From: Psammoneis japonica
Taxonomy: Eukaryota
Assembly: GCA_008632985.1 (NCBI GenBank)
Contig: QPGO01000267.1
Span: 1-64,000 of the forward strand
Direction of reading: 5' to 3'
DNA: 64,000 nucleotides
The position numbers were made by a program, and so were the translations under genes. A model generated the notes under the pieces. It saw only the letters and a program-made list of their open reading frames with translations. It was not told where the DNA came from and made no database searches. Every line of letters begins with the position of its first letter. Position 1 is the first letter of the stretch. Positions 1 to 63,100 of this stretch are shown here, in pieces.

Positions 1-1390
1 GCTCTCTGACACTGATGACAGCGCATGGTCAACTGTTGTTGAACAAGTGCATTTCTTGAACTTGTGAAAAGACTTGACGAGAAATTTGGTGAGTGTGGAC
101 TGACCTTTTCTCAGCACCCCAAAGATGTTGGAGGTGGTCAGCTGCACTGGACATCAGTGCAGCTTGTGGGCTTTTTAGATCACATGAAAAGCAAGTTGGT
201 GGAGGAGCTTCATGACCCTTTGTCTCACCTGAATGCCTTGATTGTGTTCAAGACTCTCTGATGGTTTGTGGACTTGATGCAGCGATTCAAATTGTGCATG
301 TTGGAGTTGTGGTGGTTGCCACTGGCATGCTCATTGTTGGAGTTCCATCTGGCACAATGGCCAAAACTCAAAAAATGAAAAAGAGGGGCACTTTTTTCCA
401 GCTGAGGAAGCAGAGACGACCATTCTGTGGGGACATTCATGTGTGGATCTGACATGGCCATGTGCAGCAAGTCACAGAAAAAGCAAGTTGCTTGGTGCTG
501 GCACTTGAGTGCAAGAGGACAATGGCTGGTCTTCCAACCAGATGGTTTGAGATGCCTGAATGTGGTGGCAACAAAAGAAACATGTTGCTGTTGCTGGCAG
601 TTTTGAGCATCAGTGGGCAGCACAACATCTGTGGCATGAGATGGTTTTTCTTGCAATGAGGGTTCCAAATTTGTGTGAGTCATGAATTTTAACAAATGGT
701 GCAGAGCAGTTGTCATGGCACCAAGACAAAAGCACCAAGTTCTCAGAATCCACAGGCAACTGTGGGGTCCAAGTGGTGCAAAAATTTTGTTGCATCTGCA
801 GCCACATGGCATGTGGGGAGAGCTGGGATCCTTGATTTGACATCTGAATTTCAACGGGAAACATGAACTGGTTTGGCATTTTCACATTGTGTGAGTGTGA
901 GAGGTTGGGCAGTGTGACACTCAAAGGTTTGACATGCAGAAGTTCTTGTGAAGGGAAAAATGGCCATTGACTTCATGACACTCTTTGCAAAAGCAGCACC
1001 AAAGAATGAGCTTGGATTCTCAGACATGGTTTGCTCAAAACTCAATTGAAAGTGAGATTCCACTCAGTTTGGGCAGTGACAGGGGCTCAACATGCAATGA
1101 AAAGCAGCTCACCCATGCTTGCTCTTGAAATGATTGGGGCCAAATTAATGATGCATCAGCTTGGCACCTGGACAGGGCTTCTGTTGTCTGCAAGAGGAAC
1201 AGAGACTGGCAGTCCAGTCATCCACCATGGTGTTGCCTCTCCTTTTTCTTCCAGCGGCATTGCAGTGCATGCCACATGTGCCATGTGCTGCATGCTGTGT
1301 GGCATGTGGCGTGTGTGCTGCATGGCACTCATGACATGCTGACAGTGGCTCACAACCCATCTGGCTCCAGACAAAATGAGCTGCCCCCCC

Positions 1391-1737
1391 TGTTGAATGG
1401 ACAAGTCAATGTCACCAAAAGGGAATCACACAAGGTCTCCTGCACTGCTTGTCACACTTGTCCTGGCTGCTCAGGCAGCTGTGGGTTTGGCTTGGCATCA
1501 ATGTCAACTCTGCAACCACCATGATGCAGGTGTCTCTTAAAGCCGATCAACAATCATGTAAAAACCAGATGATTCACTCCAAAGAGTGAGAGCGAAACAC
1601 ACATTCAATCAACATGGATGAGATTGTTGAGCACAAAGAAATGTTCTTCCAATCCACATCAGAGATCAAAGATCTCCACTTGATGCACACAGGTCACCTC
1701 ATGTGATGTCCAGGTCTCTCATCTCATTGTTCCAACA
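1391..1737 (-). repeat. Copia 3' LTR
   Basis: Aligns end to end with 6710-7060 (tgttgaa...tccaaca). Confidence 0.95.
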
Positions 1738-3129
1738 CACTCCTGCTGCTCACATTGATGGTCCATCCAATTGCTCCCTGGCTTCGTAACAGCACTCAGG
1801 TTTGGCTCAGCTTTCAGGCACAATCTCACTTGGGCCTGCTCTGACCTCTGTGGGCATGTCACCAATTTCATCAAAGTCAAGCATTTCATCAAATGCATTT
1901 GTGATGTGACTCACTTGGTCCACAAACTTCTTCACACAGGTGTGGCAAATGCTCTCACACACTCTCTTGTCCAATGGCCCCAATTCAGCAATTGCCTTGG
2001 CAATCCACTCATCAACTCTCCACTGCTGCAGGCAACTCTTGCAACTCCAATGTTGTTCTGGCTTTGCTTTGATGATGTGGCAATGGAAGAATTGTGCTGT
2101 CTTCAAAGCATCATGCACAACTCCACTGTTGTCTGTCAACAATGCACATTCCAGCTGCAAGACATCATCACCAGGGCCACATGCCAACTCCATGAGAGGG
2201 CCACATGTTCCTCTTGAATGCATGCTGCAGGTGTGGGACAACTCTTGTTGTTGAGTGTTCACTTGGTTGTTCCACATCCTCTTTGTCAAGGGCCAGCCAC
2301 AATTTGTTCCCTCTTGATCCCACAATCACATCTTTGCTGCATGCATTGGAAATGCACTGACCATCATTCCTGTGACAACAATGATGTCCATGGATGATGG
2401 TGCTCTCCACAATGATTTCCCAGCACTGCTGGGTCTTGCATGCATTGTCTGCTTCCTTGCACTGGCATCCTGTTCATTGCCAAACTCCCTTCCTCCATCA
2501 TTGAGCAGATCATCAGTGTGGCGGCAGACAGCAGACACACACACAGGTGGACCTCTCTGGTCCACTCTTTCACCCTGTGAGATGGATTGGACATCACATC
2601 AAGTCTCTTGTTCAACAGCTTGTGTGCCATCTCACTTCAAATTCTTTTTCACATTTGGGTCACACACCACTGAAGAAATCCCAGACATGCTTTCCATTTT
2701 CCTCAAACTCCGGTGTCAGCAATCTTGTGTTGATTGCTTCATGCAAGACACATGAGGATCCATGGGTGTTGAAGCAACCACCCTTGATGCACATTTGTCA
2801 TGTTCCTCCAGCACCTTCTGGCAATTGCATCACAACACCTTGCACCTTTCTTCTTCTTGAAGATTCATCAACAACTTTTCATGCTTCTCCCAGTGTCCTC
2901 TTGGCCACTGTTGCATCAGCACATTGGTTGATGTCATTCCATCACCAACATTTGCTGGGGCATCAAAGATGCAAGGTGTTTGCATCAATGTCATGGTTCA
3001 TCCAAATGAAGTGTGGTGTGCACCACTGCACCAACCACTTGTTTCAGGGATCTTTCACCCACATGCATCAGAAATTCTCATCTGATGTTGTGAACAGCTT
3101 GCGCAGCAATCGTGCTTGCCTTCCATCCA

Positions 3130-6100
3130 ACAGCCCACAATGGCTCACTTGAACTTTCAGAACTTCTCACCCTGTGATGGCTCAGTCGTGAAGTCCACTG
3201 TCATTCTTTCATCTGTTGGGCAGCACTGTGCTCTCAGGCTGCCCTTCTCAAACTGATTTGCAACAAAAAACATCAGATGGCAAGTGCCCCAGACTGTTTT
3301 CCAGCACTCTTGCACCCATTGGTCTCAAGAGGGACATGGCACTCTTGCTGTCCTGACGTGGGACATTCTTGTCAATTGGGTGCCCTTGTTGGTGTTTCAC
3401 AAACAGTGTGGTCCACAGGACCACAGTCACAATGTTGTCAACTCTGATGAGTTCAGCTTCAGTGCTGCTTCAGGTGTTTGGTTTCTATCTCTTGGACATG
3501 GCCTGTGCATGGCTCCTTCACCCATCATCACAATGCCTCCAGTGTGGCTCTCATGTCTGGTGCACCATGATTGATGTGTCCACACACCACACTTGACAAT
3601 TGAAAGGTCTTTTGCACTCAGTGCAGCAATTTTGTTCCTTGTGCAGTTCAGGCACATGACACATCACACTGGCTTCCCCCAATCCTTGTTGGTTGGTTCC
3701 ATCACTCACATGCATGATGCTTCAATTGCAGGGTGCATGTCCATTTGACCTCTCTTGGACAGAAGTGGCCCTTTGGCCACCCACACATGGAAGAACTGTG
3801 CTTTGTCTGTCCACAACCTTGTGCCATCTGTGTCAAAGAGTTTCTCTTTTGATGGCATCATGCCAGCATCAGCAGTGCTCTTGACCCTCTCTGGAGCCTG
3901 TTTGATCATCTTGTGAACACACTTGATTGCATCAATCTTGACCTTGCTTTTCTTGCTGAAGTCCAGGGTCATCCCTGGACAGTCGTGTCTCTTTCCTCAC
4001 TTGGTCACAACAATTTCTCCATGCTGGCTTCTGCACATCTTGCCAAGCCAGCTCAGGAATGTGTTGTTGACCTTGCGGTTCTTGTGGCTTGACAACAAGT
4101 TGTCCATGTGGAATCTAATTGTGCCATCTGTCGTTGACTTTTCAATTGGCAATGCACGGATTGCATGGGTTGAACTTGAGCACAATTTTTTCCAGGTCTT
4201 TGCAAAATTGTTTGTGCCACAGCAGTGCTGCAATCAGCATGCCAGGTGTTGCTCAAACCACCTGGACGTGGCGGACTCTCTTCCTCTTTTCCGTGACCAC
4301 ATGTGGTCCATTTGGGTTGGGATTGTTGCTTGCTGGCATGTTGACCAACATTCCTGTGATCTTCATCATGATCCAGTCTTCTCCCTTCTCAGGCTCCAGC
4401 ACCTGGGTTTGGATGAAGGCATTCAGTGCATTGGTGCTCATCACATTGTGGTGTTCATTGGCATCAATGATGGCTGTCATCATTGCTCCTTTAAAAGTGA
4501 TGCCATTGGATTTGCTGATGTGCCCTTGTCTGGCCATTCTCTGGTCGGTTTTCCATTGCAGACCATTTGGCCTCTCACTGGGCCATCTTGTTTTTTGGTG
4601 AGGATCATTGAGGCTGCCAGAGCTCTCTTCCTCTCAGTTGGAGACATGTCCTTGATCAACATCAGTGCAAAGCACACCCTGTTGTGCAGTCATTTCACTT
4701 CTTTCTGTGATGCTTCATGTCCTTCTTGTTGGCCAAATGCCTTGAGGCCTTCATGCAGCAGGTGTTGTTTTGGGCAAGTGAGATGCCTTCTCCCCATTGG
4801 AGTCGGTCATCAGTCTCTCACATAAATTGCACTGTGACCATGCCTGACTCAATGTCATGTTCCATGTCCTGTTCTGGGTTGGGACTCACATTCACTCATG
4901 GATGGTGACAGCATTCAAGATTGCTTTGTCTGCACTTCTCCTCTTCTGTGTCTGCCACTCCTGTGTATTGCTCTTTTGTGTCTTGTTCTGATTCTTTGTG
5001 TCTTTGGTGATGTGTCACTGCACTGCATGCTGTTCTGCTTCTCACAGTTGAACATTCTTTGTGGGATTGGTTTCATTCAGAGCATCATCCTCATCCTCTT
5101 GACTGCTGTTGCCATCTTCTTGACTGCTGTCATCCTCACAATTGGCAACTGTGTTCTCATGCCGCTGATCTGAACTGAACCTTTTGTTGGCTGGTGCATC
5201 TTGGGCTTCATTGCACTCTTCATCTGAGTCTTCTTTGCACTCTTCTTTTTTGCTTTCTTCATCACTTTTTTGTTCTTTGTTGTTGCTTTTGCTTTTGCTG
5301 TCACTTTCTTTGCACTCCATTCCTTGAGTCCAATCAGTGTTGCTCAGGTTGTCTTTGCATTCCCCAAAAATTTGAGCACGTTAATCCCCTGGGCAATGGC
5401 CATTTTCTTGACAGCTCATGTGGCCACATTGGTCAGTGGGATCTTGATGCACTTGCAGGGGTTCAACAGTTTCCCATGTGTGAGTTCACAGTGCAATGTC
5501 TGCCCTTCAGAATGTCACATTGTGGTTGTGAGCATGTGGTGTCTGTGCCACAAGCTTCCACAGCATTTGTGACTTCTGTGGTTCTGTGTGGGACAGGACA
5601 AATTTTCCAAAGGAGCACCCAACATGCTTGTCACAACAGTCTAGATTTCATCTTTGCATGATTGCACACATGGACTGCACGTGTCCAAAATTCCCTCTTT
5701 CTGCAGGTGCACATTCAACATGACAGTGTTCTTGACAATGGCAGCCATGCTTGCACATCATCTTGGGCATTGTCTTTTTTGTGGCACATGGTGCGCTGTT
5801 GCTTGAGCTTGTTCTTTCACCATTTGGATGCTCTGCTCAACTTCCAGAATGTGGTCCTTGGCATTTGTGGATGTTGGCTCCAGGTTGTTCATGCCATTGG
5901 CAACTTCTGCCAACATGTCCTTGAACTCAACATTGCATTCAATGAAGTCAATCTTGAATGCAGCCATGCTGTGCTGTCACAGGATCATGTCCAGTGCATT
6001 GCACACACATCATCATGATTCTTGGACTTTAGTCTCACACTGGATCTGCACTTGATCATCTTGTCCATTGCATGCAGGAGCTCAACTCCGCATGCTTCCA

Positions 6101-6624
6101 TGACTCAGGATTGCCTTGCAGTCTTTGCTTCATCTGCTTGGCACAGCAATTGTCCAAGATCTTGGCAAACATGGCAGTTTTGTCATCCTTGAACTGTTCA
6201 ACCTCATCAAGGCAATCTCACATTTTCCTTTGAACAGCACATCATTCTCTCTGTCTTTGCACTCTTTCTCTCTCAGCTTTTCTTGGCAGTCTGTTGCATT
6301 GGTGTCTGGCATGACCACCATCAAAGCATTTGATGCAGCTTCTTGTGTGAAATCCTTGCACCCCACATCCTCAATGGATCTTGCTGAGTGCACTCCCTGC
6401 TCACACTCCTTGTGAATGCACTGAGTGATCTTCTTGTTTGCTTCTTCAAACATTGCATTGCAGGAGTTGCTGTTCAGTGACAAAGGATGAAACTTCACCT
6501 CAGCCTGAAAGTGATTTTTGTCATTGGGCCTCTTGTTGTTTGTAGACCTGTGCCTTCTGCCACCTCTTCCACCTTGACCTCCATGGTTTTGATGGGTTCC
6601 TCTGCCACCTCTTCTCCCACTCAT
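3130..6624 (-). pseudogene. Copia gag-pol relic (frameshifted, internally deleted)
   Basis: Gly/Arg-rich gag start at 6624. Integrase core HILEVEQSIQMVKEQ (5758-5967). RT motifs ERKRAL..KQDGPVRGQMVCNGKPTREW, NAFIQT and IRFHMDNLLSSH. RNase H motifs SHTGG and QDSKSA. No protease/GAG-pre-integrase region recognised between gag and IN. Confidence 0.9.
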
Positions 6625-6709
6625 GATGTGGGCATTCTCTCAATCCAATGAGGCAGCAGTCTCACAGCAAACAAACACCAACTCAGTGCTCCTGACTCTT
6701 TGGAGCAAA

Positions 6710-7060
6710 TGTTGAACTGACAAGTCAATGTCGCCAAAAGGGAACCCCACAAGGCATCCTGTGCTGCTTGTTGCACTTGTCCTGGCTGCTTTGACAACTG
6801 TGGTTTGCCTTGGCATCAATGTAAACTCTGCAACTGCCATGTTGCAAGCATCTCTTGACACCAATCAACAACCACACGCAAAAAGCAGATGATTTGCTCC
6901 AAAGAGTGAGAACAAAATGCACACATTCAATTGACATGGATGAGATTGTTGAACATGAAGAAATGCTCTTCTGATCCACATCAGAGATCAAAGATCTCTG
7001 CTTCAATGCATCCAGGTCACCTCACATGATGCCCGGGTCTCTCATCTTGTTGGTCCAACA
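6710..7060 (-). repeat. Copia 5' LTR
   Basis: Aligns end to end with 1391-1737. Confidence 0.95.
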
Positions 7061-9769
7061 CCCCCTCTCTCCAAAGCTTCTGGCCCAGTTGAAGTGGCTC
7101 ACTTTGCCAAAAACCTGTTTCTTGGTTGTCTCTGTCAATTTGCCTGCAAGCCAAACTGGCTCCCATCAATGGCAGATCAACAATGGCAGATCATGGGGTC
7201 AACTCCAGCAAGCATGACAACAAATGTGGGGGCCATGCTTTTCATCCACAGCACCAGACTTGCAACAGCACCAGATTCAGTGCAAAAGAAGCTTCTGGCG
7301 GTTTTGCAAATTGTCCTCCAAAGAGTGCTGTGACCAGATGATGGCATGCGACATTGTCAACTCATCTGTGCCTGGCATTGGATTTGACTGCTTGTTGAGC
7401 AAAGAAAAAATTGCCAGTTGGTGGCAAGAATCAGATTGAGGGGTCCAGGTGGTTGCTGCTTTTGATGTGTTTGCAGCTCATGGCAAGGCATTTTTGGCTG
7501 AGAGAACAAAAGTTAGCTTCTGGCATTTGCTGAGAAGATGTGCGCCCAGTTGTTTTCATCATCTGCGAAATTCCTTTGTGACATGCACACAACATTGCCC
7601 TGATGAAAGCTGGGCCTCCTCTTTCAACCAGACATGAAGTCATGCTGGACTTCAGATTTGTGCAAAAATGAGAGACTTGATGAGGAGAGAGGTGCACTTG
7701 GTTCAAGAACAATGGAAATGAGGGTGGCACAAGCTGGGAAATTCTTTGATGCAATCAAGAAGTGGGTGCGCACACTTGTTGCAGCTCAACAACAGAAAGA
7801 ATTGGATGTGCACACTTGCTTGTTGCAGATCAAAAACAGCCTGAGGGCAGAAGTGTGGAAGGCCAGAGGTGTGGCATCATCAATGAAGACCTTTTGGGCT
7901 TTGACAGCACAAAGGACACCACCCAGAGGTGACCAACTGCAGCTCATGTTCAAAGTTGAGCATGCGTCAAACAAAAGTGACTCAGCAAGTGTTGCCAGCA
8001 TGATGGCAAACCCTGCTGCTTCAACTTGAGGAACAAGCTCCAAGATGACAAGGACTGTGACAATCAGGGCAAGAGCAACTTCCAGCAACATCATTTTGGT
8101 TTGCTGTGGCTTTTGCCACATTGTTGCAACTTGGAACACCATGCACACAATGCCCTTCCACCACACAAGGCAAGACAGCTTGCTGTGTTTGGCTGCAAAT
8201 GTTGCAGGTTACAATGAGATGAACTGTGCTGTTGTTGCACTGGTTGCCATCCTGCTGGACAAAGGAAAAATGTGCCAGATTTGTGCAAAATCCTGTGTGA
8301 GTTTCTCATCTTTCAACTTGGTGATTTTTGCAGGAGGGTTGCACAAAAGGTTTTTTGGAGGGGGGGGGGGGGGGGGGGTGTCAGGCAATTTTCCAGGGAT
8401 GACAAAAATGACTGCATTTTCTTTCCTCTGTGCTTTCCAATTGCTGGCTTCTTTGACAGCACCAGCTCTCATTGCAAGGTGCTCTTTGCTGTCAGATTCA
8501 GCTCAACAAAGCCCAGTTTTCTGCCTCTGCAGCCTGCTGCCAGGCAACAGGAAGATTGCTCAGCTTGGCCAATTTGCTTGATGCTTGTTTCTTCCTCTGC
8601 AAGTCATTCAAGCAGCACCAAAGCTTTGTTGGATGCAACCAACAAACCAGAGTTGGGGGAAGTCCCATCTGTCAAGAGAACACAACCTCTTGGGTCACTC
8701 TGTAAAGTTGTTCCACCTTTTGAGCAGGATGCAGCCACCCAATCAAGGAAACATGATTGTTTGGAAAGGTGCTGCCAACGATGTTCTCTGACCAGAAAGC
8801 AAGTGTCTTGGGATGTGCGGGTGACCATTCTGAGAAAGTTGCACCCCAGCAGTCATCTGCGCTCTTGTGTTGTTTTCAAACTGTGCTTGGCAGTGCATCT
8901 GACACAGTGCAATTGGGGCCAAAGGTGCGAGATCTGCCTTCTGACTGGAGCATTTGTTGGAGTGCAAAAGTTGAGGCACAAAGGTGGCTGATGGAAACAC
9001 CCAATGAAGAGCACACCATCTTTCAAAAATTGGCCAACTCATTTGTTGTGCAACAATGAACATTTCAAAGACACTGGTGGACCTGCTGCTGGATGGTGGG
9101 AGGGCGACCAAGTCATTCTCTTGGAGTGGCATCATCAACTCTTGGAAGCTGTGGAAGCAAAATTGCCTGCCACACTTTGGCGCTGGCTCAGAGTGCTCCC
9201 TGAAAGTGCCACCCACCCTTCCAAGAGCATGTGGAGGGGGGTGGGATTGGCAGGAGGCATGTTCAGGACCTTGGGTGGAGATCTGACAATCACTGTGTCA
9301 CAAGCTGAGAGGGACAAGATGGAGGCTGTGGTCAGAGAGCTTGGCCTGTGCAAGAGCTGTTCATTGAATGGGCACAATCCCAGTCTTCAAGTTCAAGGGT
9401 CGTGAGAGGAAGAGCGAGGTTTTCTGGCAGAACATGAAATTCACACTGAACACCCGGCGATGTGGAGCAATTTGCTTCTCCTTTCCCATGACATCCAGCG
9501 GTGATTCGAATCGGTGTCATGGACTTGACGCATTTCACGGCGATCTTGTGCCGAAAAGCGTCATGATTCAGAATGAGCATTGCACACACGAAAGATTTTA
9601 CGTGATGATGTGAAACATGCTTTGTTGCCACAGAACGTTTTTTCCAATGCGCGATGAGAACAGCAGGAGCGAGTGAGAACCTGTCGTGATGGGAAGCTGT
9701 GAAAAGAGTTGCACAAAAACAAAAGAGCAACAAACGCACCTGAATTGTGCAAAAAAAAAAACCATGACA

Positions 9770-10626
9770 ATGTCATCCCCATGGGATGAAAGATGTCCAC
9801 CTGGTTGGTTCTGTTTCGGCCGTTTGCGGCTGCAAGGATTGAGAACAGAGCCACCTTGTGGAGCCGCATGTCTTGCCAGAGAAGCCTGCCTCTTAATTCT
9901 CATTTCTGACTTGGTGTGCATTGAGTTCCACACCATTTCCATCTCAGCCTTAAGCCCGTTCACATCTTCAAAGGCCGGAGGGATGAAAGCCCCAGTTTCG
10001 TGGTGGCGCTTTCATGAAGCCACAGAATGATTGTGCGACCCGACCATTCCTCCAGCAGTCGAGACCATCGCCTTGGAATGGGAGAAAGAAGATGTGTCCA
10101 GATGGTTGTCCCACCCAAATTGCTCAATGTGAAGTCGGGCCACCGCTTCCTCTCTTGTCTGACTTCTTCCAACAAAATTCTCCAGATTGGAAATGTTGGC
10201 AGCTCGTGGCCCTGAAATGATGTTGATGATGAGACCGCCGCTTTGAGGATCAGCGCAATGACACAATTGATCAATTGCATCAAAATCACTCAGATGAGGC
10301 ATCGAGATGTAAACTGTCGAATTGACCTCTGCCTTGTCAAGAAGATGCAGAAAGACAACAAAGGGGTGGCGATCGTGGGCATGTGACTCTCCTGCCAGTT
10401 CCTCCCCTTCTGGGTGTCGCAGACAAGTGGAAAGAAGGAAGACTTTGTCGGTGTGCAGCGGTTGCACGGGTTCGGCTTCTCCCAAGTTTGCCCAACTCTG
10501 GTCGACAAAATGCCCGTCGCTGACCCAAACAACTCTCTGCTGCTCCATGATTTCATGTTCATGGTTGCACCCGTCGTTAACTTCTTCGATCGGCCCAGCA
10601 GTCTCGCTCATGGTGCCATGCGCCAT
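9770..10626 (-). pseudogene. Hypothetical protein gene, TA-mutated
   Basis: ATG-initiated 204-aa ORF with protein-like composition, apparently continued by the 9598-9963 ORF. TA is lost but CG is retained. No family recognised. Confidence 0.45.
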
Positions 10627-11541
10627 TGGTCGTGTTTCGTGTTATCACCATCATCAGCTTGTTTCATTGACCACTCAGTGGTTGGTGATTGCAGACTTTT
10701 TCGTGTCGGTCCGGCAGTCGGGCAGTCGGGGGGTCGGGCAGTCGGGTTGTCCGTCTGAATTTGAAAGTGTGTCCCTTGGATTTTGGAACGGGTATGGGTT
10801 GTTTAGTAAAGATGAATTCTTCGGATTCGTAGAATGATCATTGAGGACATGAGAGGTCGTGGGGACATCCTAAAAAATCGATAAATTCCCTACGACGGGT
10901 ACGTGGCACGGTTTTTCAGGAGAGCTCGAAAGTTCTGAAAAATTGGGATTGCCGGCGTGGCATGTTCAAAAATGTATTCAGTTATATACAAAGATAATTT
11001 ATCGTGAATTCTACACGAAAAAGTCATATTGGGGAAAACATATCGAACAATAAGTGAGTTTGTGCGATGCGCTATTATGGCGATAAATTGGAAAAAAAGA
11101 GTGTCCGTGCACCTCGCTACAGCCCCAAAAATGGCATGAGACATCAAACACAACGGTCATCCGCGTCACCGGTGCGGTGGCCACGCCACTCAGCCCCGGC
11201 GGTGGGGCCCTACGTACGTACCGGTACAGGCAATACAGCATGCAAGTACACCCACACCCAGAAAGAAAGACAAGTGGTCAATGCTATGCTCCCCGCAGGC
11301 CTGGTCTTTTTCCTTTTTCACATGATGATGCGATGCGCGATGCGATCGAGCGATAGTCTAGATGTACTGTACCAGGTGATGTCTGTACGTCGCCTCTCGT
11401 CAACAATCCGAAAAGCACAACAGGCGAACTGTCATCACCAAACCCAGAACCGCAAAACAGCAAACTCAAAACAGCCACAGCACGCACAATCTCAAATCTG
11501 AAATCGTCGCCAACAGCAACAGAACAACAGAACTGAGAACC

Positions 11542-16196: not shown

Positions 16197-16648
16197 GAGG
16201 TGTGCACATGATGTTGTTGATGTAAGTTTTGTGGTCTGGACTGCATGTTACTCTATGAAATAATCTTTAATAAGTACAGCAACCGATGGGTCTTGCAGGC
16301 AACCTCGTTTCAAGACGTTGCCTCTCTAGCCAGGCCTTGGGCCCTACTCTAGGCTTTACTCTCTTGACTACCGGTACATACTGTAGGGCCCTAGAGTGTG
16401 GCAAATCCTTGCCTACTATTCTGAGCTACCGGTAGCTCTACTGTACTACTACTCTCTATCGGGAGTAGGGCCTCTAGCTAGTAGCTAGCTAGAGAGTAGA
16501 GAGGAGCCATACGCACTCTCCCATCGCTCGTTCTGTGCTGTACCGGTGGAGTCCATCCCAAAACAAGACCCAGCACAAATTAAGACCCGCCGTGGGTAGC
16601 AGCACACAAAAGCGCGTAGAATTTTCTTTTGGTCGAAAGAATTTGAGA

Positions 16649-16704
16649 GGGGGTTGCATGAAAAATCGAAATTTTCATTTTCCCCTGTTTTTCACGTGTT
16701 TTCA
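16649..16704 (+). repeat. Left inverted repeat of the Harbinger element
   Basis: gttgcatgaaaaatcgaaattttcattttcccctgtttttc is matched exactly, in reverse complement, within 20388-20442. Confidence 0.95.
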
Positions 16705-17179
16705 AACATTTTGACTGAAGAAAAGTCGTCGTGTCGAGAAAGGGGGGCACAACTAATGTCGGTCGTCCATCATCTCGAGCATGCACTGGATGGCACCACG
16801 TGAGTGTGAGTCAGAGAGGGGGCAGCCAAATGTCGCCTTGTGACGTGCGCATCAGAAGCTCGCTGCTCGCGCCCCTGGCTTGAAGACGTCAGTGCTCTCG
16901 TCTCAATTGGCCACGCTCATCATTCGACCCACCAACGAGCTGACGTGCTGGGTGGGAGACATCATTGTTGTCATCACATCTGGCGGATTCAGCAGCAGCC
17001 TCAGTCATTGTAACTTTTGATGCTGAGACCGAGCTGCTGGACAAAGTTTTGCTGTTTTGCTTGTGCATCGCGAAACCCAACGAAAATTTGTTGCAGACAA
17101 GACAAACTGGCTCTCTTGCAGCTGTGACCAAAGAAATGTCACAATGAATGTTGCAAAATGTCCTAATTTCTCAATGGGT

Positions 17180-18247
17180 TCCCATTCATCTGAGCACTCC
17201 ACTTCAAAGGGTGTGCATCCCATCACAATGGAAAGCTGTGTGATGTTCGCCACTGCTTGGAAGACAAGGTGATGTGTCAATCGATCATGACGATGCGTTC
17301 TTGTCATCATTTGGAAGCGCTTGAACCAACCATTGACAGCTTCGTGGCGGGCGCGAGCGACAGTCTTCATGCACTGGCCGGCATTGCGCAGGCCGGTCGG
17401 GGCCACACAACACTGGCGTCCGTCACTGCATGCCCCATCAGCCAAGCAAAACTCTCCATCTTGAAGTTCACAATTGATCGCCTCTCGTGCTACACTCAAA
17501 TCAGGAATGCCAGCTGGGCAGGGGCCATTCACCCAAACTGTCCAACCTGTCTGAATGCATGCGGCGATTTCGCACCTGAGCCCTGCACCGTTGAATTTGT
17601 GCGAGTGCCAGATGGGGTCGAACGGCGATGGTTCGTTGATGCGATGGTCAGTGCCGTCCACCGTCACCTTGCACACACTGCCACTGTCATCCATGAACCT
17701 GTTCTCCCAATCAATCTGTGATGAAATTGTGGTGAATCAAATGTCAGTGCATTGATTTTCAAAGAGAAGTTGGAGTCATGGTGCGCACCAAGTTCAAATT
17801 CACAATTAGCGCCATCCCAACCCACACCCATTTTCTCAACGTATCCTCGTGCATGCCACCGCAGATTCTAGCCATCATGGTTTCAGTGTCACACAGTTTC
17901 AGAAAACAAAGTGTGCATGACAAATGAGTGGGTGGAAATCCGCGTGGGATGTTGCCATCATCTTCAAGAAGGCCCCACAACTCACACACTGCGTCTCGCG
18001 GAGAGCAGAAGCACGAGGCAAATCTGCGGTTCCAAATCCGTTGTGACCTCATTGGCCTCTGGATGACTGTCCCCGCAAGACAATCTGCTGTGGCTTTGGG
18101 CAGGCGCATTTGCATGGTGAGTGACACAGACGTGTGTTGCGCGCACGATGTTTTGTGTTGCATGCCAAAAAGATTGCTGCTGCGCCAGTTCCGTGCAGCA
18201 GTGTTTTTGTTGCCGCAGGTGGATTGATGGCCGGGTGGGGTTTTCAC
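17180..18247 (-). pseudogene. PIF/Harbinger (DDE_Tnp_4-type) transposase, two exons
   Basis: Motifs VDGTD..I.EP, W(H)SHKFNGAGLR(C)EIA, WVNGP, LADG and RARHEAVN. N-terminal exon ...FLKL(C)DTE...TLRKWVW. Intron about 17720-17785. Confidence 0.9.
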
Positions 18248-54321: not shown

Positions 54322-56850
54322 TTAGTCTGGCGTGGGGACAATCTCGCGGTAGCAATAGTTTTTGGCTCTCTTTCCTCGCCCGCGACAACCGGGGACACGT
54401 TCGAACTTTTGACGAATAAAGCACTTCAAGTTCTTGCCCCTACAGCTTGAGTCGTCAATGCAATTGCCTTGACAAGCTTTTAACTTCCTTGATGGATGCA
54501 ATTTCTTCAACATCAGCTTGGGTAGGGGCGCAGTCGGGGCCGGAGTCAATGATGGTGTTGGTGCCGCAGTTGGATCCCCATTACTATCTGGCTTGTAGCA
54601 ATAGTTTTTAGCTCTCTTTCCTCTTCCGTGACAACCGGGGACTAGAGGGGAAGGATAGAGAGACAAACAGTATAAGCAGCTAGACTACATTGATATGACA
54701 CTGCGGAAAAAATGGCAATTCATTCATATACACACCTTTCTCAAAACCGCGGCGAATGAAACATTTCAATCCAAGGTTGCCTTTGCAACTAAAGTCATCG
54801 ACGCAATTTCCTTGACAAGCTTTTAACTTCCTTGATGGAAACAAACCCTTCCAAATCAGCTTGGGGAGGGTGGCAGTCGGGGCCAGAGTCAATGATGCAG
54901 TTGGCGCCGCAGTTGGATCCAGCGTACTATCGGGGTTGTAGCAATAGTTCCGTTGCTTCTTCCCCACGCCTGTGCAGCCAGGGACCTTTTCGAAACCGTC
55001 GCGAAAGAAGCATCTCAATCCGACTGCACAATCTGCGTGCCTTTTGCAATGTGCCTGGCAGAGTGACAGAGCATTCGGCAAATGTGGCGGATAGGCAGCA
55101 ATGACAAGCTCCTTCAGTGATGGCATTTTGTTCAATCCCGTCGGTGTCAACGTTGGATGAAAAGTGGGAGAAGAAGTTGGGGAAGTCATGTCGGGATGGT
55201 TCTCGCTACTGGGCGTTAGCGATGGAGCCTCCGACGAACCAATTGATGGAGTCACTGATGGAACCGATGATGGCATTCCAGATGGCGTCTCCGATAGAAC
55301 GGCCGAGGAGGGAGCCGCTGAAGACGATGGCATTCCAGATGGTACAGATGAAGGATTGGATGATGGTAACGGTATCATGGACGGACTTAGAGTTGGCTCA
55401 AAATCAGGAGAGAACGAAGGCGAAGGCGTTGTCGAGTTATTGAAGCAATACTCCGTGCCAGAGACACGGAAGCCTGAACAATTGGGAACGTCAGAGTCGT
55501 CCTCAAAACAGAGGAGGTCGCCTTCACAATCACCATCGTTATCGCAACTTTTTTAAGATGAAAGGAAATGAATGAGCGGCGAAATCGGAAAAACTGCGGA
55601 AAAAATGACAAACTCCACATGAAAAATACTTACTCTCCTTCGCACTCCTTGAGAAGACGCTGTGGGTTTCGAATAATTGTATATTGAGGGCCCTCCGTCT
55701 CCGGTACCTCTGGCCAGGTCCGCTCATAAATAGGTTTACAAGCACCTAGAGGAGAATATAACCCCCCTCTCTGGTCAACCTTGAACAAGTATCTGTCGTC
55801 ATTTGGGTCCTTGTTTCTTACTATAGAAACCAGCACCGGAGGCGCAAACCCGCCATCCTCAACCTCAAGGCCCCAAAAATTTTCGTTGTCATCGTCAAGT
55901 TGGCGCACGCAATAATCATGCCAATCGCCGTGGACATATAACACGGGGAGTTCGGGATAGACCTCTCGCAGTAGAACACGGAACGGCTCGCCGAAAAAAT
56001 CCTTTCTTGTGCCTCGAACCGTAATGGGGGAGTGCCCAAACAGAACAGCCGCCTTCATATCTTTTTGCTGGTAAATTTGGAGCTTTCTCCTACACCACTG
56101 CAAATTTTGGGTCATTCTCTCACCCTCGTTGCCGTAGCTTTTGCCTCCAATAATGTTCAAGCCGATAAAGAGCTTTCCAGTGATAAAAAGGGCAGGAAGA
56201 CTGTGAGAAGCAAGATAGGGAAACCGGAGAGTATCAACCACTGTATCAGGACGCACCACCCCATTTTTGAAGAATGCAAAGTTTTCACTTCGATCCACCC
56301 CAGGAAGCCGATACGATCCAGTTTGTCTCGTAACGCGAACATTTTTCTCAGGGGAAAATGTTCCAAATCCGTACCGATTGTTAATTCCAAAGTGTTCCGT
56401 CCAGATCTTCCAAGCCTCTTCCGGTTTCTTACAGTCTGAAAACTCGTTGTCTCCAACCACGAAAAAAGAGTCTCGCGGGTCGTAGTCCACCGCATTGTTG
56501 GGATGAACATACATTTCAGCAATATCATTGTACGCTGTGTAATTGCATGGCCATCGGCCCCTCTTAATGTCCCCCACGTGAACTTGAAACAAAGCGTCAT
56601 CGTCCGTCATGTTGAGGCCACGTAGCTGTTCATTCAAACAATACTTTTGCTCCAGGCTGTATGGGGTGTCGCCCATTGCGTAAAAGCTAACAACGGTTTC
56701 AACATCAGCTGATGGTTCAAAGCTGGGAAACTCCTGGCATGTGCGCATCAAATACCTTGTGTCATTATTGTTGCCCACCTCCCATGACACATCAGAGCCC
56801 ATGGAAAAAGTGGCGAACAGAGCCGAGAAAGCAATGAGTTGTGGTCGCAT
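54322..56850 (-). CDS. Secreted calcineurin-like metallophosphoesterase fused to four frustulin-ACR-like Cys repeats
   Basis: Signal peptide and motifs GDTPY, HVGDI, GDNE, GH and HGDWH. An intron at ~55548-55633 joins ECEG|DCDNDGDC. Further introns ~56175-56255 and ~54645-54735. Pro/Ser/Thr linkers. Confidence 0.85.
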
Positions 56851-57399: not shown

Positions 57400-60300
57400 C
57401 GTCTGCAACTCTTTTTGTGGAACCATTTTTGCCTGTGAATCGCTGCTCAATCAGAGCCATCATTGGACCTGCAACCGATTCGTTTGGGTTGCTGGGGCCA
57501 TGTGTGTCATCAAAGTGAATGTCCGAATAATGCGGTGCACCGTGGAAGTTGTTTGAGAGCTGATCACCTCACATCATGGTCTGGCTCCTGCAGCTGGTCT
57601 GTGGCACCACCAAGTTCTTCCAAGCCGCAGATTCAACAATGCAGTTAATAATTTTATCCTCATCAATGTGAGACAGAGCATCCACAGGCAGCTTGTCATG
57701 AGCTGTGATACAAACTCAGTGATCAAACTTTTGGCATGTCTCTCGCTCCTTCTTCTTGTGCCCGCTGTGCCACCAGAGCAGCATCAACTGCCTCTGATCT
57801 CACAACGAATTTTGGATTGGGAGATTTGTGCTCCTCCCAAGATGAACAATGCTGCAGTGACCAAATGACACACTCAGCTGACTTTGGCATGACATCTCAT
57901 TTTGACACTGCTTCCAAGAAGCACCGGCCAACCTGGTCTCGCACAAGCAAGGCGGCCCGACAGAGCGGTGACTCATCCACCCACCTTTTGTGTGCACTCC
58001 ACTCAGTGACACAAGTGCCATCCACCTTGGGTGGTGTGATGGTTTGGGCCAACAAGTCTCCTGTGGAGCCTGGAGATGCCATCTTGGGTCTCTCTCATTT
58101 GAGTTGAGACAGCCTCAGGGGATTGTCTTTTGGGGGTGCACCCTCCTCACTGTCAAAAGAAAAGAGGTTTTTGAAGTCAAATGCTTGTTTGCAGAGGTCA
58201 ATCATTGGAGCCATTTTGAATTATTTTGGCATTTGTTTGGTGAAAAAAAAAACATGTCAGGAACTTGAGCACCATCAAGGCCACAGTTGACTCAGCTGTG
58301 TTGCAAGATCTTTTGGCAAAGTTTGGAGAGCTGTTGTGCTGAATGATGGTGATTTGTGTCAGGGAGCAGAGGTGCTTTGGCAATGCGCTCTCTCTTTGTG
58401 TGTTCTGAAGCCCAAGCTCAGCAAAGGGAGATGTGATGTCCTTGCTTGGCAGCACACAGTTTTGGGCACCACTTTCATTCAATGCCAGCAGGGTGCCAAC
58501 TGTCATGCGAGGTGCATTTGCATGAACACACAGCAGCCACAGTTGCTCCAATGGCAGAGTCTTGCTAGACAAGAACAACAGTGTGAAGAACTGAGCACTC
58601 ATGAGATGTTGGTGGCATTTGATCAACAGTGCATTGGCCTTGGACAGTGGGGCAAAATGAAGTGGGCCACACAAAGAAAGACATCGGGCTGGTTGTGATG
58701 ACGGCACATGTGCCCAACTTGGAGAAGATGACAAGATGCTCCTTGCCATCATCAACACACATTTTTCTTCATTTGGCCTGGAGAGTGCTGTGGAAAATGA
58801 GGGTCATTGTGAAGGACAAAGCACCAGCACCCACACATCAAGCCACCAGGGGGGCAGTGACATGATTTTTTTTTTTAAACCAGGCCTGCTGGGGAGCACT
58901 GGCCATGGCGCAAGTCCCTCCCCTCCAACGCGTGCATGTGGTGCTGCTGGAGGTCAGCCCAGCAGTGGATGGTCAGACAGCAATCATGCATGCAGGGCAC
59001 CCTGCTGCCAGGTTGTGCATGGTGGAATCAATGGCAACACAATGACTGTTGTGCCAGATGGTGCCATGATGGGCAACTTGGACTGCTGTTGCACTGTCAG
59101 ATGGTTCATGTCAAGTTTGGGGCTGTGTTCTTGCAGATCATTGGCTGTTGTGCCTGACTCATCATTGTGTCATTTTCATTGCTGCACATTGATGCATGGT
59201 GCAAATCTGAAAATGTGTCATCATCAATTGTTCCTCAATTGACAAGCTGAGGGCAGGAATTTGGATCATTGCAAAATTCAAGAGCACAGTGCTGCAGGTG
59301 TTTTTGACATGTGGTGACAGCATGCCAGGGTGCTCATCTGGCATTGGTCAATCTTCCATGTCACCTCATTTTTGTTGATGATGTTGATTCTCATTCACAG
59401 CAAACAGAGAGTTTGTCATCAATGGCACATCATTGGCATTGCAAGTGTGCAAAGTTGAACACAATGGCTTGCACCAGCCAAGCAAGCTGCACACAAGAAC
59501 GCTGGACATGAGAAAGGCCACAGAATGGCACATGGCAAAGTGGCAAAAGATGCTTCAACACCTGCTTGTGGAATGAAGAAATGGTGCTGTTGCTGCCCCC
59601 AGAGTTGCTGCATTGCACCAGGAGTGTGGGGTTGAAAATTTCAGAGCCAAGATTCCAATCAGTGAATGAGTTGGCATTGCAAGAAGCCTCTGAAGTGCAC
59701 CTTGTTGGATTGCTTGAGGATGGCAACATTTTTGTGCCATTCATGCCAAGTGTGTTGCCATCACTCCCAGAGACCTCATGTGTTGGCTCAATGCATTCAT
59801 TGGTCATGGGGGGTGTTTGCAGAAGAGAGGGCTGTGGTCTGTTGATTGGAAGCAAGAAACATGCATGACCAGTTGCAATGATGTGTCATGGGTCATGGGT
59901 GCACATGTCATTTGGCTTCCAGTTCAATGATGACAAGGTGGTTTGTGTGTGTTGTGCATTGGCAGTGCTTTCTTTGCAATGTTGCACAATGGTGTCTTGC
60001 TTGTGATGTGTTGTCTCATGTGGCATTGCACACAAAACTCTATTTTGGGATGTTGATGAGCAATGTGCAATGTCTTGCATCTGTGTTTGACAGAGCGATG
60101 AATTCATGCAAATGCAACCACAGCACAGCACTGACCTTGTTCATTTGCAACCTGCATGATGATCACAGAGTCTTTCAGCCTCTCTCATGCCATCACACCT
60201 GCCACAAACATTCATGTGTGGGCAGCATTGCCACAGCATGAGAAAGGACACTCAATGTCAGCAGACAAGAAGCCCCACATGCATGCATGCACACTTGACA

Positions 60301-63100
60301 AAAGCAAGCAACTCAACCTTTCATCAACAACTCAGACACCAACAAATGTCATTGAATTTGATGCTTCACAATGACCCCAAGGCCGCCAAACAACATGGAC
60401 GTTCTTTTTCTTGTTGTTTGCCACCACCAAGTCAGAAAACACAAGAAGATGGAAAGAAACTGCTGCAAGATGAGAGGCAACTTGGCAACCAGAAAAAGCT
60501 GCAGCCCTTTTTTCTTTTGATGCAGCCTCCAGCTTCTTCCAGCTGCTCCGCTCAGAGTGCAAGCTGTTGCAAAATCCAGCCCTCCACAATCCTTGACAGG
60601 ATGTGGCACTCCACTTGTTGCTGCCACACAAGTGCAGCACATGTGTTTGTGTGGCTTGCAAAAAAATGTGGAAACATGGTGAGTGAAAATGCTGAGTTTG
60701 GCTGCTGTTGTTTGGGGCTGTCAAAAACAATGAAAGAGGAGCTGTCACAAAATGCAATGCAGCCAGTGTTCAAGAGGGCAAACTGGCTGGTGCAAAGAAG
60801 CCTTGCCCAAACAAGCACAAATTCTTCTGTTTCCTTGGTGTTGGAAATGGCTCTGCCTGAACTCAGCTGCACAGCCACATGCTGCCTGCAATGAGTGGCT
60901 CCTCTCAAGTTCAAGAAAAGGAAACAGAGGAAAGACAGTTCATTGACTTGACATGAAGTTCATTGTGACATCTCTGTTCATGATGCAGCGGGGTCATTCT
61001 CCACCAAAGACAAAACTTGCCAGGAAGGAGCGACAAGAAGAAACATGATGTTGTTTGGAAACCTGTTTGTGGCAGCCAGCAGGCATTGTCCTGCACAAAT
61101 GTGCACATTGCCAATCTCTTTCCTGATGCAGGGGGAGGAAGCAGCAGCCTGCAATGGCAACAGCAGTGCCAGCATGCTGTGCCACAAAGTCCAACTTGGG
61201 TGCAAGCATTGTGTTCAGAGTTTCCCACCAGCTTGTTCTCTTTGGCTGTCATTTCAAAGAGGTCTGCAATCACAGCCCATGGGTTCTTGCCCAATTTTTG
61301 AAAATTTGAAACTGATTTAACCAACTTTCTGCACTCACAATTGCACCTTCCATCTGGGAGTTGCTTGCAGCACCAACCACAGCTTTTGATGCAGTGAAGA
61401 TCACCACAGTGCCCCACAATGGCACCTCCCTGTTCTTGCCTCTGTTTTGGCCACACAACAGACATGTGCAAAGGAGCCAAAAATTATGGGAGGGTTTAAA
61501 GCTCCTCCTGAAAATAGAGATGCCTTGTTGCTTCAATCATTTTCTCAAAGCACTTCTTGGGTGTGTGTTTTCCTTGCCACAGGGGCCATTGGCAGGTGCT
61601 TCTTGGGGCTTCATCATCTGGCAAAAGCACCACAGCAGCTGCAGGGTCAGACCTCACACATCCCATGTTGCGAGCACAGCAGTCTTTGAGATTGAAAGGG
61701 GAAAATGGGCAAGTCAACAAAAAACAAGCTCTTTGTTCCTCAGCAGATGAGTTTTTGATGCTTTGCCACAAGAAGCTTTCCCCTCAGAGTCCTCGTCATT
61801 GTCCTGCCTTGTTGTTGTTGCCACCACAGCTGTGCTCCTTGGGAGGCAAGAGACTGATCCCTCTCACAGCCACATTTGTCACCAGCATGGCCACTGTGTG
61901 ATGTGTCATCATCTCACAGTTAAATTGTCAAAGTCTTTCATCAACATCATTTGTGACATTTTTAGATTGTTGGCTGCATTCTCAAGATTCAAAACATCCC
62001 TCATCTCACAAAGTCAGTCATTGATGTCTCTCTTCAGTTTGCAGCCATGCTGGTTTCTCCATGGAGAACACTTTCAACACCATCTGCTGTTGCACTGCAA
62101 CCTTGAGTTGCAGCTCTCTCATTGCAGCTCTCTCATCAACACAAGCTGTTCCACAAAATCTTGGCTGGTGCGAGCCCCAGCCGGTGCTGCGTGGCACTCA
62201 TTCTGCCACCAGAAAAGCACTGTCAGTTGGTCCACTGAAGCTTCCATCTGCTGCCAATGTTGATTCATTCATTTCAACCAAATTGCCATGTTGTCTCTAA
62301 TTCTGAATGACATCCCCCGTTGGTGTCAGACAATGCTGCACCGACACCCCCCTTCCACTGCCATTCCTCGTTGACAAGCTGGTGCCAGCGCTTGCACGTG
62401 CCAAGGAGCCAACCTTTGATCCCCAACACACTCCAGTTTGAAACGTCATTGCCAGATCATTTCAAACCAAACCCAGGCTGAGTTCCTTTGACTCTCTGAG
62501 TCCCCTGTCCATCACTGACTGTCACTCAAGTGATGCCACATTGCAGGATGCTCTTGTTGCGCTGTTGATCATCAAGCTTTGCTTGGCATGTGGGTCCACA
62601 AGTTGTTGACTCAAGAGCATCTCTGTTGGTCCATTCTTGAGTTTGTTGCATGCATCAGGCACTGCAGCAGCTACAGCAAGTCATCCTTTCAAGTCTCTGC
62701 CCCATGAACACACGCCTGTTGCTCCCACACAACTCCCCCCCCTTCACCAGCTCTGTTTTCCAAGATCCAGCATGAGTCCAGCACCATTCTCTGCAGCTCT
62801 GCCATTTGAAGCATGACTGTCTGCAGCACCACTGACCATGGGTCCACCACCTCAGCCACTGCCCCTGTGTGGCGGACCTCGTCAAACACTGGCTTTTCTT
62901 TCGACACTGCGACTCTCCCGCTCCTCTTCTCACTGGCCTCTTCATTGTGTCTTTTGTTGTCTCACATGTGTTTTGCGCTGTGTTTCCATGATGACCAGAT
63001 GATGCACTCCACGGCACAAGCACCAGCAACAGTGAGGATAACAGCTCCAAACAGGTGCAGTGGTTGCAGACCGAAAGTCTTCCATCAAAATTCAAACAAC
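57400..63100. mobile_element. TA- and CG-depleted hypermutated domain, unclassified, with gene relics
   Basis: Near absence of TA, and centrally of CG. Abrupt edges. Contains a histone H3 relic. No transposase recognised. Confidence 0.7.
59464..59810 (+). pseudogene. Histone H3-like pseudogene
   Basis: MA(C)T..., GMKK(WCCCC)P..AL, RFQS...LALQEASE(VH)LVGLLEDGN and CAIHAK(C)V(A)ITPRDL. Confidence 0.88.

Follow-up and report, generated by a model that had tools for sequence, protein, structure and literature searches.

A probable TpA-specific mutation process acting on mobile DNA in a 64-kb stretch of Psammoneis japonica

TpA-specific mutation of DNA by a cell has one earlier report, which dates from April 2026 and concerns a single rhizarian alga: Mettrop et al. 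described how integrated giant-virus and virophage DNA of Bigelowiella natans is hypermutated specifically at TpA (bioRxiv 10.64898/2026.01.13.699255). As presented in the available part of that preprint, 231 of the 302 mutations in mutation-accumulation lines fell within two integrated viral regions; 230 of these 231 were A>G or T>C, with all the GC-biased ones at TpA, and the rate, raised in some lines only, was approximately 1000-fold above that of the rest of the genome. The same source counts 124 TpA-depleted clusters genome-wide, notes that DDE-endonuclease and reverse-transcriptase domains are over-represented among TpA-depleted genes, and puts forward an ADAT2-like adenosine deaminase, citing the activity of amphioxus and trypanosome ADAT2 on DNA. 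Here we analyse a stretch of 64,000 bp from Psammoneis japonica (positions 1–64,000 of contig QPGO01000267.1, assembly GCA_008632985.1; hereafter the window), in which five blocks have lost nearly all of their TA dinucleotides. Among the blocks are a Ty3/Gypsy retrotransposon, a PIF/Harbinger DNA transposon and a further long terminal repeat (LTR) retrotransposon, designated LTR element 1.

No report of TpA hypermutation in a diatom was found in the literature searched, the B. natans preprint being the one report of any kind. A mutation-accumulation study of P. tricornutum gives, in the portion of the article available, an ordinary GC>AT bias (PMC6604790), and the text at hand of two papers on diatom transposons makes no mention of dinucleotide or deamination effects (PMC2806351, 10.1101/2025.10.24.684338). 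A preliminary description of the window, made from its sequence, knew of no described system of this kind; this is now outdated, since the preprint, in the part available, shows exactly the same signature.

Blocks depleted of TpA and their borders

Observed/expected ratios (o/e) of TA, CG, TG, CA and AA were computed for each block, using 33,604 bp of pooled gene-bearing DNA of the same window as the baseline. The five blocks, 28.4 kb in all, contain 114 TA against approximately 1208 expected from the neighbouring genes, and chance is not the cause of this deficit. From 0.61 in the baseline, TA o/e falls to 0.02–0.10 in the blocks (Table 1); the loss is near saturation, with 85–97% of TA gone. 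When TA was counted in 500-bp intervals, the blocks gave 0–6 (n = 52, median 1) and the remaining DNA 8–43 (n = 64, median 19), with no overlap, and by these counts the loss is confined to the blocks within this 64-kb window. The five TA-poor domains of the preliminary description were found at about the coordinates given there, next to genes of normal composition. For the second of them, given as 16700–20200, the presence was confirmed and the extent was not, as it runs from one terminal inverted repeat (TIR) of the Harbinger to the other (16650–20442).

TG and CA rise to o/e 1.5–2.1 in the blocks, compared with 1.17 and 1.16 outside, and the other dinucleotides shift little. AA is not depleted (o/e 1.09–1.33 in the blocks and 1.14 outside), and the GC content is 0.47–0.51 in the blocks and 0.47 outside. 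CG is almost lost as well in 1–9000 and 57400–63100 (o/e 0.08–0.15) and partially lost elsewhere in the blocks (0.31–0.71); the preliminary description, whose claims from the sequence mention TA only, had missed the near-total loss in these two regions.

The positions of TA listed along the window show that the block borders are abrupt throughout, and they fall within approximately 55 bp of the element termini. TA is dense until 33 bp before the left TIR of the Harbinger and again from 57 bp past its right end, and the nearest TA flanking the Gypsy element lies 41 bp before the LTR. TA density resumes at 10793, to the right of the region of LTR element 1, and at 35158, to the right of the block that adjoins the Gypsy. 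The block 39800–40980 is bounded by TA at 39777/39821 and 40995, and the block 57400–63100 by DNA with dense TA up to 57315 and from 63128 onwards. The edges of the elements themselves are richer in TA: the two Gypsy LTRs hold 5 and 3 TA per 175 bp, compared with 4.9 per kb in the interior, and the right subterminal 90 bp of the Harbinger (20217–20305) contain a cluster of 6. Such edges may be due to an edge effect of the targeting, or to resistant contexts such as CTAG and TTAA.

Direction, timing and context of the changes

The direction of change was read from conserved protein columns. For the Gypsy element, 120 relatives were aligned to the window by tblastn; they are collinear with it along the minus strand from protease through integrase and carry PF00078, PF17917/19 and PF00665; against these relatives its reading frames are broken. 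A Pfam scan of stop-to-stop open reading frames (ORFs) recognised RT_RNaseH (E 9e-24), RVT_1 (E 9e-6) and, weakly, Asp_protease_2. The altered Gypsy peptide strings singled out in the preliminary description, CVDD, AATHCRN, ACPD, DASDCQ, VACWS and NCST, were all located at 29984–30524 (−), and a consensus of 25 relatives reads YIDD, AVTYYRN, AYPN, DASDYQ, VAYWS and NYST at the matching places. With WHSHKF and LRCE of the Harbinger, found at 17569–17610 (−), all eight strings are present, and the Gypsy consensus agrees on the Tyr originals.

Conserved Gypsy columns, defined by at least 60% agreement among at least 20 of the 120 homologues, numbered 574. Tyr is kept in 3 of the 23 Tyr columns; 13 have become Cys (TGY), 5 His (CAT), 1 Phe and 1 Val, while each of the other residues is retained in 54–93% of its columns. 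Changes to both Cys and His occur, as had been claimed, which together with the LTR swaps described below fits A>G at TpA on both strands. The 139 changed columns were classed by single-step base change and context: A>G accounted for 30 columns after T, with 1 more ambiguous, and for 4 in other contexts, T>C for 13 before A and for 2 in other contexts, CpG transitions for 20 (5 of them ambiguous), other C>T or G>A for 7 (1 ambiguous), transversions for 35 and multi-step changes for 27. A TpA context is thus found in 43 of the 49 unambiguous single-step A>G/T>C changes, and ApA in 2 of the 34 unambiguous single-step A>G changes. Replacements of I by V, M by V, T by A and K by E sit behind codons ending in T, as a TpA rule demands, and CpG decay is visible at conserved Arg columns (R to C, H, Q, W or stop). 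In terms of composition, the Gypsy interior contains 4.9 TA per kb compared with 55 in 56 relatives (approximately 91% gone); its TA o/e is 0.09 compared with 0.71, and its CG o/e 0.67 compared with approximately 0.97.

The Harbinger transposase was recognised by a DDE_Tnp_4 match at 17008–17736 (−), which at E 5e-4 lies under the Pfam cut-off, and by 133 homologues at E ≤ 1e-5, many of them with PF13359; a target duplication of 3 bp, such as the element has, is typical of the PIF/Harbinger superfamily. Among its 101 conserved columns, all 3 Tyr have become Cys, and 5 of the 7 A>G/T>C changes lie at TpA. In both elements, most of the A>G/T>C changes thus lie at TpA, and the DNA transposon has been mutated like the retroelements, as the preliminary description had it.

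A retroelement integrates with two identical LTRs. Those of LTR element 1 are now 82.7% identical in bases and 95% identical in purine/pyrimidine code, and those of the Gypsy 86.4% and 99.4%, respectively. Read by eye, the alignment of the latter pair has 24 positions of difference; 23 are transitions, and about 20 of these lie in TA- or CG-derived steps. CA<->TG exchanges make up 11 of the 16 adjacent double differences in the first pair and 6 of the 12 in the Gypsy pair, the pattern expected if an ancestral palindromic step (TA or CG) was resolved separately, to either product, in each LTR. Since both pairs resolve the same sites oppositely, the hits were chromosomal, later than insertion and on both strands. 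TG and CA have increased to much the same degree in four of the five domains. The Gypsy is the exception, its sense strand having an excess of TG over CA of +29.5 per kb, compared with −9.5 ± 15.9 in 56 relatives, and more TG than any of them.

A rough calculation, in which each TA site of the Gypsy interior received approximately 2.4 events as against 1 transversion in 176 LTR positions, would place the per-site rate at TA at least two orders of magnitude above background. TA loss also exceeds CG loss several-fold in the same elements, as approximately 85–90% of TA and 30% of CG are lost from the Gypsy and the Harbinger.

The survival of TA depends on the flanking bases. The 114 surviving TA were compared with 1428 in gene-bearing DNA after grouping in ten symmetric NTAN classes, and survival ranged from 0.54 for TTAA and 0.28 for CTAA through GTAA (0.14), CTAG (0.13), ATAA (0.076), ATAG (0.070), CTAC (0.050) and ATAC (0.017) to 0 for both ATAT and GTAC. 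A model in which the 3' neighbour of each strand's adenine sets the probability of its being struck, independently of the other strand, gave per-strand survivals of 0.75 for TAA, 0.38 for TAG, 0.14 for TAC and 0.11 for TAT and fits the data (deviance 9.9, 6 df, p 0.13), while uniform loss is rejected (deviance 128, 9 df). The ranking of contexts did not change with the 56 Gypsy relatives as the baseline. The survival data thus fit a preference T-A-Y > T-A-G > T-A-A, with 3' T or C good, G intermediate and A poor. The rule explains the codon outcomes in the Gypsy as well: Leu columns contain TTG 30 times and TCA never, because the opposite strand of TTA is a poor TAA; GCA occurs in 7 Val columns, because the opposite strand of GTA is a good TAC; and Cys is the usual replacement of Tyr, because no context is better than TAY. 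For the Gypsy, the model predicts 5.9 surviving TA per kb, compared with the 4.9 observed.

Other copies of the elements were examined in contigs of one public sample, which give no cover over 34010–35343. None of the runs matching the stretch is listed as RNA. The summed word depth is 600–2279 for the Harbinger and 1831–2869 for the Gypsy, compared with 40–64 for single-copy genes, and hence both families are multi-copy. Contigs and window differ by A>G at 212 places, T>C at 214, C>T at 249 and G>A at 222, with 13–35 places for each class of transversion. Among 40 listed places of difference, TA stands elsewhere against CA or TG in the window at 5 and TG elsewhere against TA in the window at 2; there are 3 TG<->CA swaps (6 rows), and 12 rows are CpG-type. 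The copies have thus been mutated differently, and less mutated ones exist.

Three contigs represent an empty site of the Harbinger, joining 16650 straight to the right flank at 20462 with a single GAG and a shorter A-run. The 11–13 extra letters at the joint equal 20447–20457 of the window, and three sequence variants were found, with a depth of 57–101. Either the insertion is polymorphic, then, or more than one haplotype is present in the sample. Within the element, a second run of the sample (X2) skips short GT..AG intervals at 17779–17864 and 18115–18198 and, at 17876 and 17921, reads TA against CA in the window. X2 is probably RNA, in which case a less mutated copy of the Harbinger is transcribed and spliced.

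Only 67 bp from the mutated Harbinger begins a non-autonomous TIR element of approximately 1 kb that has been spared. It retains a normal TA content (Table 1) and is also free of the CG decay found in the mutated blocks. Its bin 20670–21336 has a summed contig depth of 7868, the highest of the stretch examined (genes, 40–64), and a joint 20595->21316 seen in the contigs marks a deletion derivative. Because this very high-copy element keeps its TA, copy number alone is not the trigger, although the element may be too young or too short to be targeted. The term "repeat-targeted", used in the preliminary description, is consequently not borne out: the element with the highest depth is untouched, and the main target in B. 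natans is, according to the available part of the preprint, single-copy. The sharp borders and this spared neighbour point to a guide based on sequence or chromatin rather than to repeat pairing.

Other blocks, genes and features of the window

The identities originally assigned to the blocks hold for the Gypsy and the Harbinger; they are not confirmed for the "Copia", as LTR element 1 gave no transposable-element protein domain at E ≤ 1 in a Pfam scan of its ORFs, such as the RVT_2 and rve of a Ty1/Copia element, in which integrase precedes RT, nor for the "cargo DNA", which apart from a RING-finger-like fragment has no recognisable homology. When the Gypsy and Harbinger proteins were compared with the rest of the window, nothing was found at E ≤ 1e-4; two weak Harbinger matches fall in LTR element 1 (7e-4 and 1e-3). 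A search for CCHC, DSG and YxDD motifs returned one CCHC-knuckle-like string at 6296–6337 (−), a weak indication, since Cys and His are inflated there. As TAA and TAG are gone from the blocks and only TGA stops are left, long spurious ORFs run in all six frames, reaching 302 aa at 3917–4822. When this longest ORF was compared with 1.84 billion representatives, 7 matches were obtained (best E 3.4e-10), all of them short, unnamed and without Pfam domains. Blocks free of TA and Tyr and poor in stops may thus yield false genes in gene calling and hide transposons from domain searches and repeat annotation; both false ORFs and failed domain searches were met here.

No Pfam match was found in ORFs of at least 70 aa in 1–1390, or by ORF scans of 7061–10650 and 39800–40980. 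In 57400–63100, no LTRs came to light by blastn, tblastx or a purine/pyrimidine-coded self-comparison, and no transposable-element domain was detected at E ≤ 1; the same three comparisons found no likeness between blocks. Self-comparison of the blocks yielded one pair of inverted and two pairs of direct repeats, those of the elements named above. In the block that adjoins the Gypsy, RING families match a fragment at 34565–34783 (+), with a best E of 9.5e-6. Its likeness to the host RING gene at 38103–39473 is at the domain level only (58% over 24 aa at 39246–39317), and it may be a captured or decayed piece of a host gene.

The genes between the blocks are ordinary and intron-poor; among their products are RING proteins, a sulfotransferase, an LCAT-like acyltransferase and a malonyl-CoA decarboxylase. 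The best named relatives of the malonyl-CoA decarboxylase come from the diatoms Asterionellopsis glacialis, Trieres chinensis, Corethron and Fistulifera (41–56% identity), followed by the sister group Triparma; the named relatives of the Gypsy and Harbinger proteins are also from diatoms. These relatives indicate a host that is a diatom or a near ochrophyte relation of diatoms, and not Bigelowiella. The decarboxylase gene consists of two ORFs approximately 60 bp apart, and the gap is probably a short intron or a frame change. X2 also skips 22518–22624 in a 768-aa phosphodiesterase-like gene. Finally, normal TA-bearing DNA contains a tandem duplication of approximately 340 bp, which lies partly inside a minus-strand ORF of unassigned function (Table 1).

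Table 1 Mobile elements, TA-poor blocks and other features of the window. Segments over which TA o/e was computed are given in brackets.
Feature	Coordinates	Strand	Evidence and content	TA o/e	CG o/e
Block on the left side of LTR element 1, cut off by the window start	1–1390		3 TA, 7 CG; TG o/e 1.85, CA o/e 2.00	0.03 (1–1390)	0.09
LTR element 1	1391–7060		LTRs 1391–1737 and 6710–7060 (347/351 bp, TG..CA ends); 5-bp target duplication CCCCC at 1386–1390 and 7061–7065; TA and CG loss both saturated	0.03 (1391–7061)	0.08
DNA right of LTR element 1	7061–10650		Two sub-blocks, 7062–9000 and 9001–10750	0.02 (7062–9000); 0.06 (9001–10750)	0.09; 0.60
PIF/Harbinger DNA transposon	16650–20442	−	TIRs 16650–16704 and 20388–20442 (55 nt, 92.7% identical); 3-bp target duplication GAG at 16647–16649 and 20443–20445; DDE_Tnp_4	0.10 (16650–20442)	0.71
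Spared TIR element (1011 bp), non-autonomous	20510–21520		Inverted arms 20526–20543 and 21493–21510 (18 nt, 100% complementary)	0.95	1.03
Ty3/Gypsy LTR retrotransposon	28066–33673	−	LTRs 28066–28240 and 33499–33673 (175 bp each, self-comparison); target duplication CAGCC at 28061–28065 and 33674–33678; reverse transcriptase/RNase H domains; homologues	0.09 (28066–33674)	0.67
Block adjoining the Gypsy	33679–35150		RING-finger-like fragment	0.08 (33675–35150)	0.31
Short block	39800–40980		6 TA	0.08 (39800–40980)	0.42
Malonyl-CoA decarboxylase gene	44519–46367		N-terminal domain 44519–45394, C-terminal domain 45459–46367		
Tandem duplication	54349–54986		54434–54606 and 54777–54949, 82.7% identical		
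ORF overlapping the tandem duplication	54680–55552	−	Function unassigned		
5.7-kb block	57400–63100		18 TA, 51 CG; TG o/e 1.84, CA o/e 1.95	0.05 (57400–63100)	0.15

Explanations and comparison with described systems

From these results, we consider it very probable that a TpA-specific A:T>G:C process has acted on the mobile elements after their integration, on both strands, delimited by the elements and not as a simple function of copy number. The preliminary description had already suggested a chromosomal process that turns TpA into TpG/CpA on both strands of mobile DNA, and the spectra and the LTR swaps support it. As to the mechanism, a polynucleotide adenine deaminase would convert A to inosine in silenced mobile DNA; inosine would be read as G, and replication would fix the I:C pair. 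A TA step would become TG if the adenine of one strand is struck and CA if that of the other is. The deaminase might be recruited to silenced, cytosine-methylated mobile DNA by the chromatin state or by a sequence guide; the candidate named in the available part of the B. natans preprint is of the ADAT2/TadA-like kind. The outcome would be permanent inactivation of the element, with all Tyr codons and TAA/TAG stops rewritten. An adenine deaminase as the agent, which in TadA-like form was already a candidate in the preliminary description, is the leading though still tentative proposal, and the explanation as a whole, that is, the process together with such a deaminase and of the same kind as in B. 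natans, seems to us likely. A wider hypothesis, that of a genome-defence pathway common to distant algae of the SAR group (stramenopiles, alveolates and Rhizaria), in both Rhizaria and diatoms, with a guided T-A-Y adenine deaminase that acts soon after insertion and independently of copy number, is possible but more doubtful; it would account for the sharp borders and for the spared high-copy neighbour. If true, it would be the adenine counterpart of fungal repeat-induced point mutation (RIP) and of APOBEC defence in animals, and a natural targeted DNA adenine deaminase would be of interest for base editing.

Several points weigh against this interpretation. Damage to adenine and modification of the thymine on the opposite strand give the same base-pair change and are inseparable by sequence. 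The signature does not appear to be widespread among Gypsy relatives: none of the 120 homologues is Tyr-depleted (lowest share of Tyr kept 0.56, median 0.92), none of the 80 related metagenome loci is hypermutated (TA o/e at least 0.43, median 0.71), and no close relatives of the mutated Gypsy were found in metagenomes. The TG excess on the Gypsy sense strand goes beyond the context model (26 compared with 23 per kb), which suggests that editing of RNA or cDNA, or transcription, may contribute. The context model itself uses host genes or distant relatives as proxies for the lost ancestral sequence. The contigs come from a single sample, possibly the source of the assembly, so the read support is not independent. 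Lastly, the polymorphic Harbinger copy may have acquired its mutations at another site before being mobilised in trans, and its sharp borders need not mean targeting in place.

The alternative that best survives, though we regard it as unlikely, places the lesion on thymine: a TET/JBP-type dioxygenase would modify the T of TpA to 5-hydroxymethyluracil (5hmU) or a derivative, and mispairing or misrepair would give T>C. TA is self-complementary, so that every event is equally a T>C at TpA, and the T-A-Y rule equals R-T-A on the opposite strand. In dinoflagellates, 5hmU prefers TpA and TpC; it pairs well with A, which counts against a mutagenic role. According to the available part of one study, a TET/JBP homologue produces the 5hmU of dinoflagellates, which is concentrated in repeats and contributes to transposon silencing, but repeats high in 5hmU are typically less diverged, LINE/CR1 excepted (PMC11572971), a pattern that gives no hint of strong mutagenicity. 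Moreover, diatoms are not known to carry abundant 5hmU, and the excess on the Gypsy sense strand is of TG and not of CA, which suggests adenine, provided that exposed non-template DNA is the substrate.

Much less probable is error-prone repair in heterochromatin, with a Pol-eta-like WA>WG spectrum triggered at methylated or damaged transposon DNA, which the preliminary description had put forward as one candidate. TA is one of the two WA motifs, and the CG decay in the blocks suggests cytosine methylation and G:T mismatch repair. The fit is nevertheless poor. The other motif is spared, as AA keeps its o/e and the Gypsy has 2 A>G changes at ApA compared with 30 at TpA; in the younger elements TA has disappeared far more completely than CG (o/e 0.09–0.10 compared with 0.67–0.71), so that it is not a by-product of CpG repair; and the near-saturation of one dinucleotide would be hard to reach by patch repair.

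A similarly low probability attaches to mutation mostly before integration, in which an ADAR- or ADAT-like enzyme would edit transposon RNA, or an enzyme would act on cDNA, and the edited copies would be inserted. The surplus of TG over CA on the Gypsy sense strand, above that of all 56 relatives, is what such editing would leave, as is the preponderance of Tyr to Cys over Tyr to His (13 and 5, binomial p 0.096), and ADARs favour U before the edited A (bioRxiv 10.64898/2026.01.13.699255, in the part available). The Tyr bias, however, is already predicted by the T-A-Y rule. The signature is also that of the cut-and-paste Harbinger (TG 96.8 per kb, CA 99.1 per kb), blocks without retroelement structure are equally depleted, and the opposite resolution of the same sites in the LTRs of each retroelement points to later hits on both strands.

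Miscalling by long reads of a modified base at TA and CG would make the signal an artefact, which we consider highly improbable. Methylated bases do cause systematic long-read errors, the loss of CG makes methylation of the affected blocks probable, and the sole run that matches the stretch may be the source sample. Nevertheless, 47% of the 31-letter words sampled from 28000–35000 occur exactly in the contigs of this run, whose single-copy word depth is approximately 55, which indicates accurate reads. The contigs themselves show TG<->CA swaps and TA/TG alternatives among copies, the same sites also differ between the two LTRs of a single element, and an artefact would not be expected to follow a per-strand 3'-neighbour rule that spares TTAA or to stop at TIR ends. 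The available text of the B. natans preprint also states that its signature was measured with Illumina data (bioRxiv 10.64898/2026.01.13.699255). Native composition, in the form of a TA-poor donor or of selection against UpA in transcripts, can practically be dismissed: mild avoidance of TA is general (host genes here have an o/e of 0.61, related Gypsy loci one of 0.71), but conserved Tyr and catalytic motifs are destroyed and frames broken, the LTRs have diverged by swaps, and the relatives are not TA-free, with copies in the same genome keeping TA at some of the CA/TG sites.

To return to a TpA-specific process that may act through adenine, its features set constraints on the candidate enzyme: action after integration on both strands, sharp borders, independence of copy number, the 3' rule and a rate above that of CpG decay. 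Diatoms include genetically tractable species, in which the enzyme and its targeting are open to a knock-out search. If the saturation seen in this diatom-like alga is the work of the same process as in B. natans, TpA hypermutation is not the curiosity of one species, and is either ancient within SAR or recurrent.

RIP changes C to T, mainly CpA to TpA, and thereby creates TA; it is triggered by duplication. Like RIP in Neurospora and other fungi, the process considered here would comprise chromosomal transitions after integration, at one dinucleotide and on both strands, which kill mobile DNA and leave a blockwise skew. It differs in its direction, as TA is destroyed and the polarised changes are A>G/T>C, and in this sense the preliminary description was right to call it the reverse of RIP; the GC content is kept or raised. 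RIP hits any duplicate above a few hundred bp, whereas the 1011-bp TIR element of high depth is untouched here. Decay of methylated CpG likewise gives TG and CA, and co-occurs in the blocks (CG o/e 0.08–0.71), but it cannot remove TA. ADAR and APOBEC systems share the hypermutation of selfish nucleic acids, which in their case is driven by deaminases; they work before integration, with RNA or single-stranded cDNA as the substrate, and leave a signature on one strand, whereas here a DNA transposon has been struck and the LTRs indicate later hits on both strands. TadA and ADAT2-ADAT3 have DNA-acting forms, laboratory base editors among them; in their natural target, A34 follows a conserved U33, and this 5'-UA matches the TpA rule.

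The closest likeness is to B. natans, as far as the available part of the preprint describes it. In both, the changes are almost exclusively A>G/T>C, at TpA, leading to TpG/CpA, and strike discrete blocks of foreign or mobile DNA in otherwise normal nuclear DNA, here within the 64-kb window. The host there is a rhizarian alga and here a diatom-like stramenopile; the main target there is single-copy, while the dated targets here are multi-copy transposons; and the process there was caught live, with main targets far short of saturation (TpA rho 0.45 in the giant-virus region), while the window preserves an end state with TA o/e of 0.02–0.10. The LTR-pair test, the mapping of borders and the 3'-neighbour rule are given here and not in the available part of that preprint. 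From this comparison, we infer that the window records the same kind of process as in B. natans, in a second lineage and at saturation.

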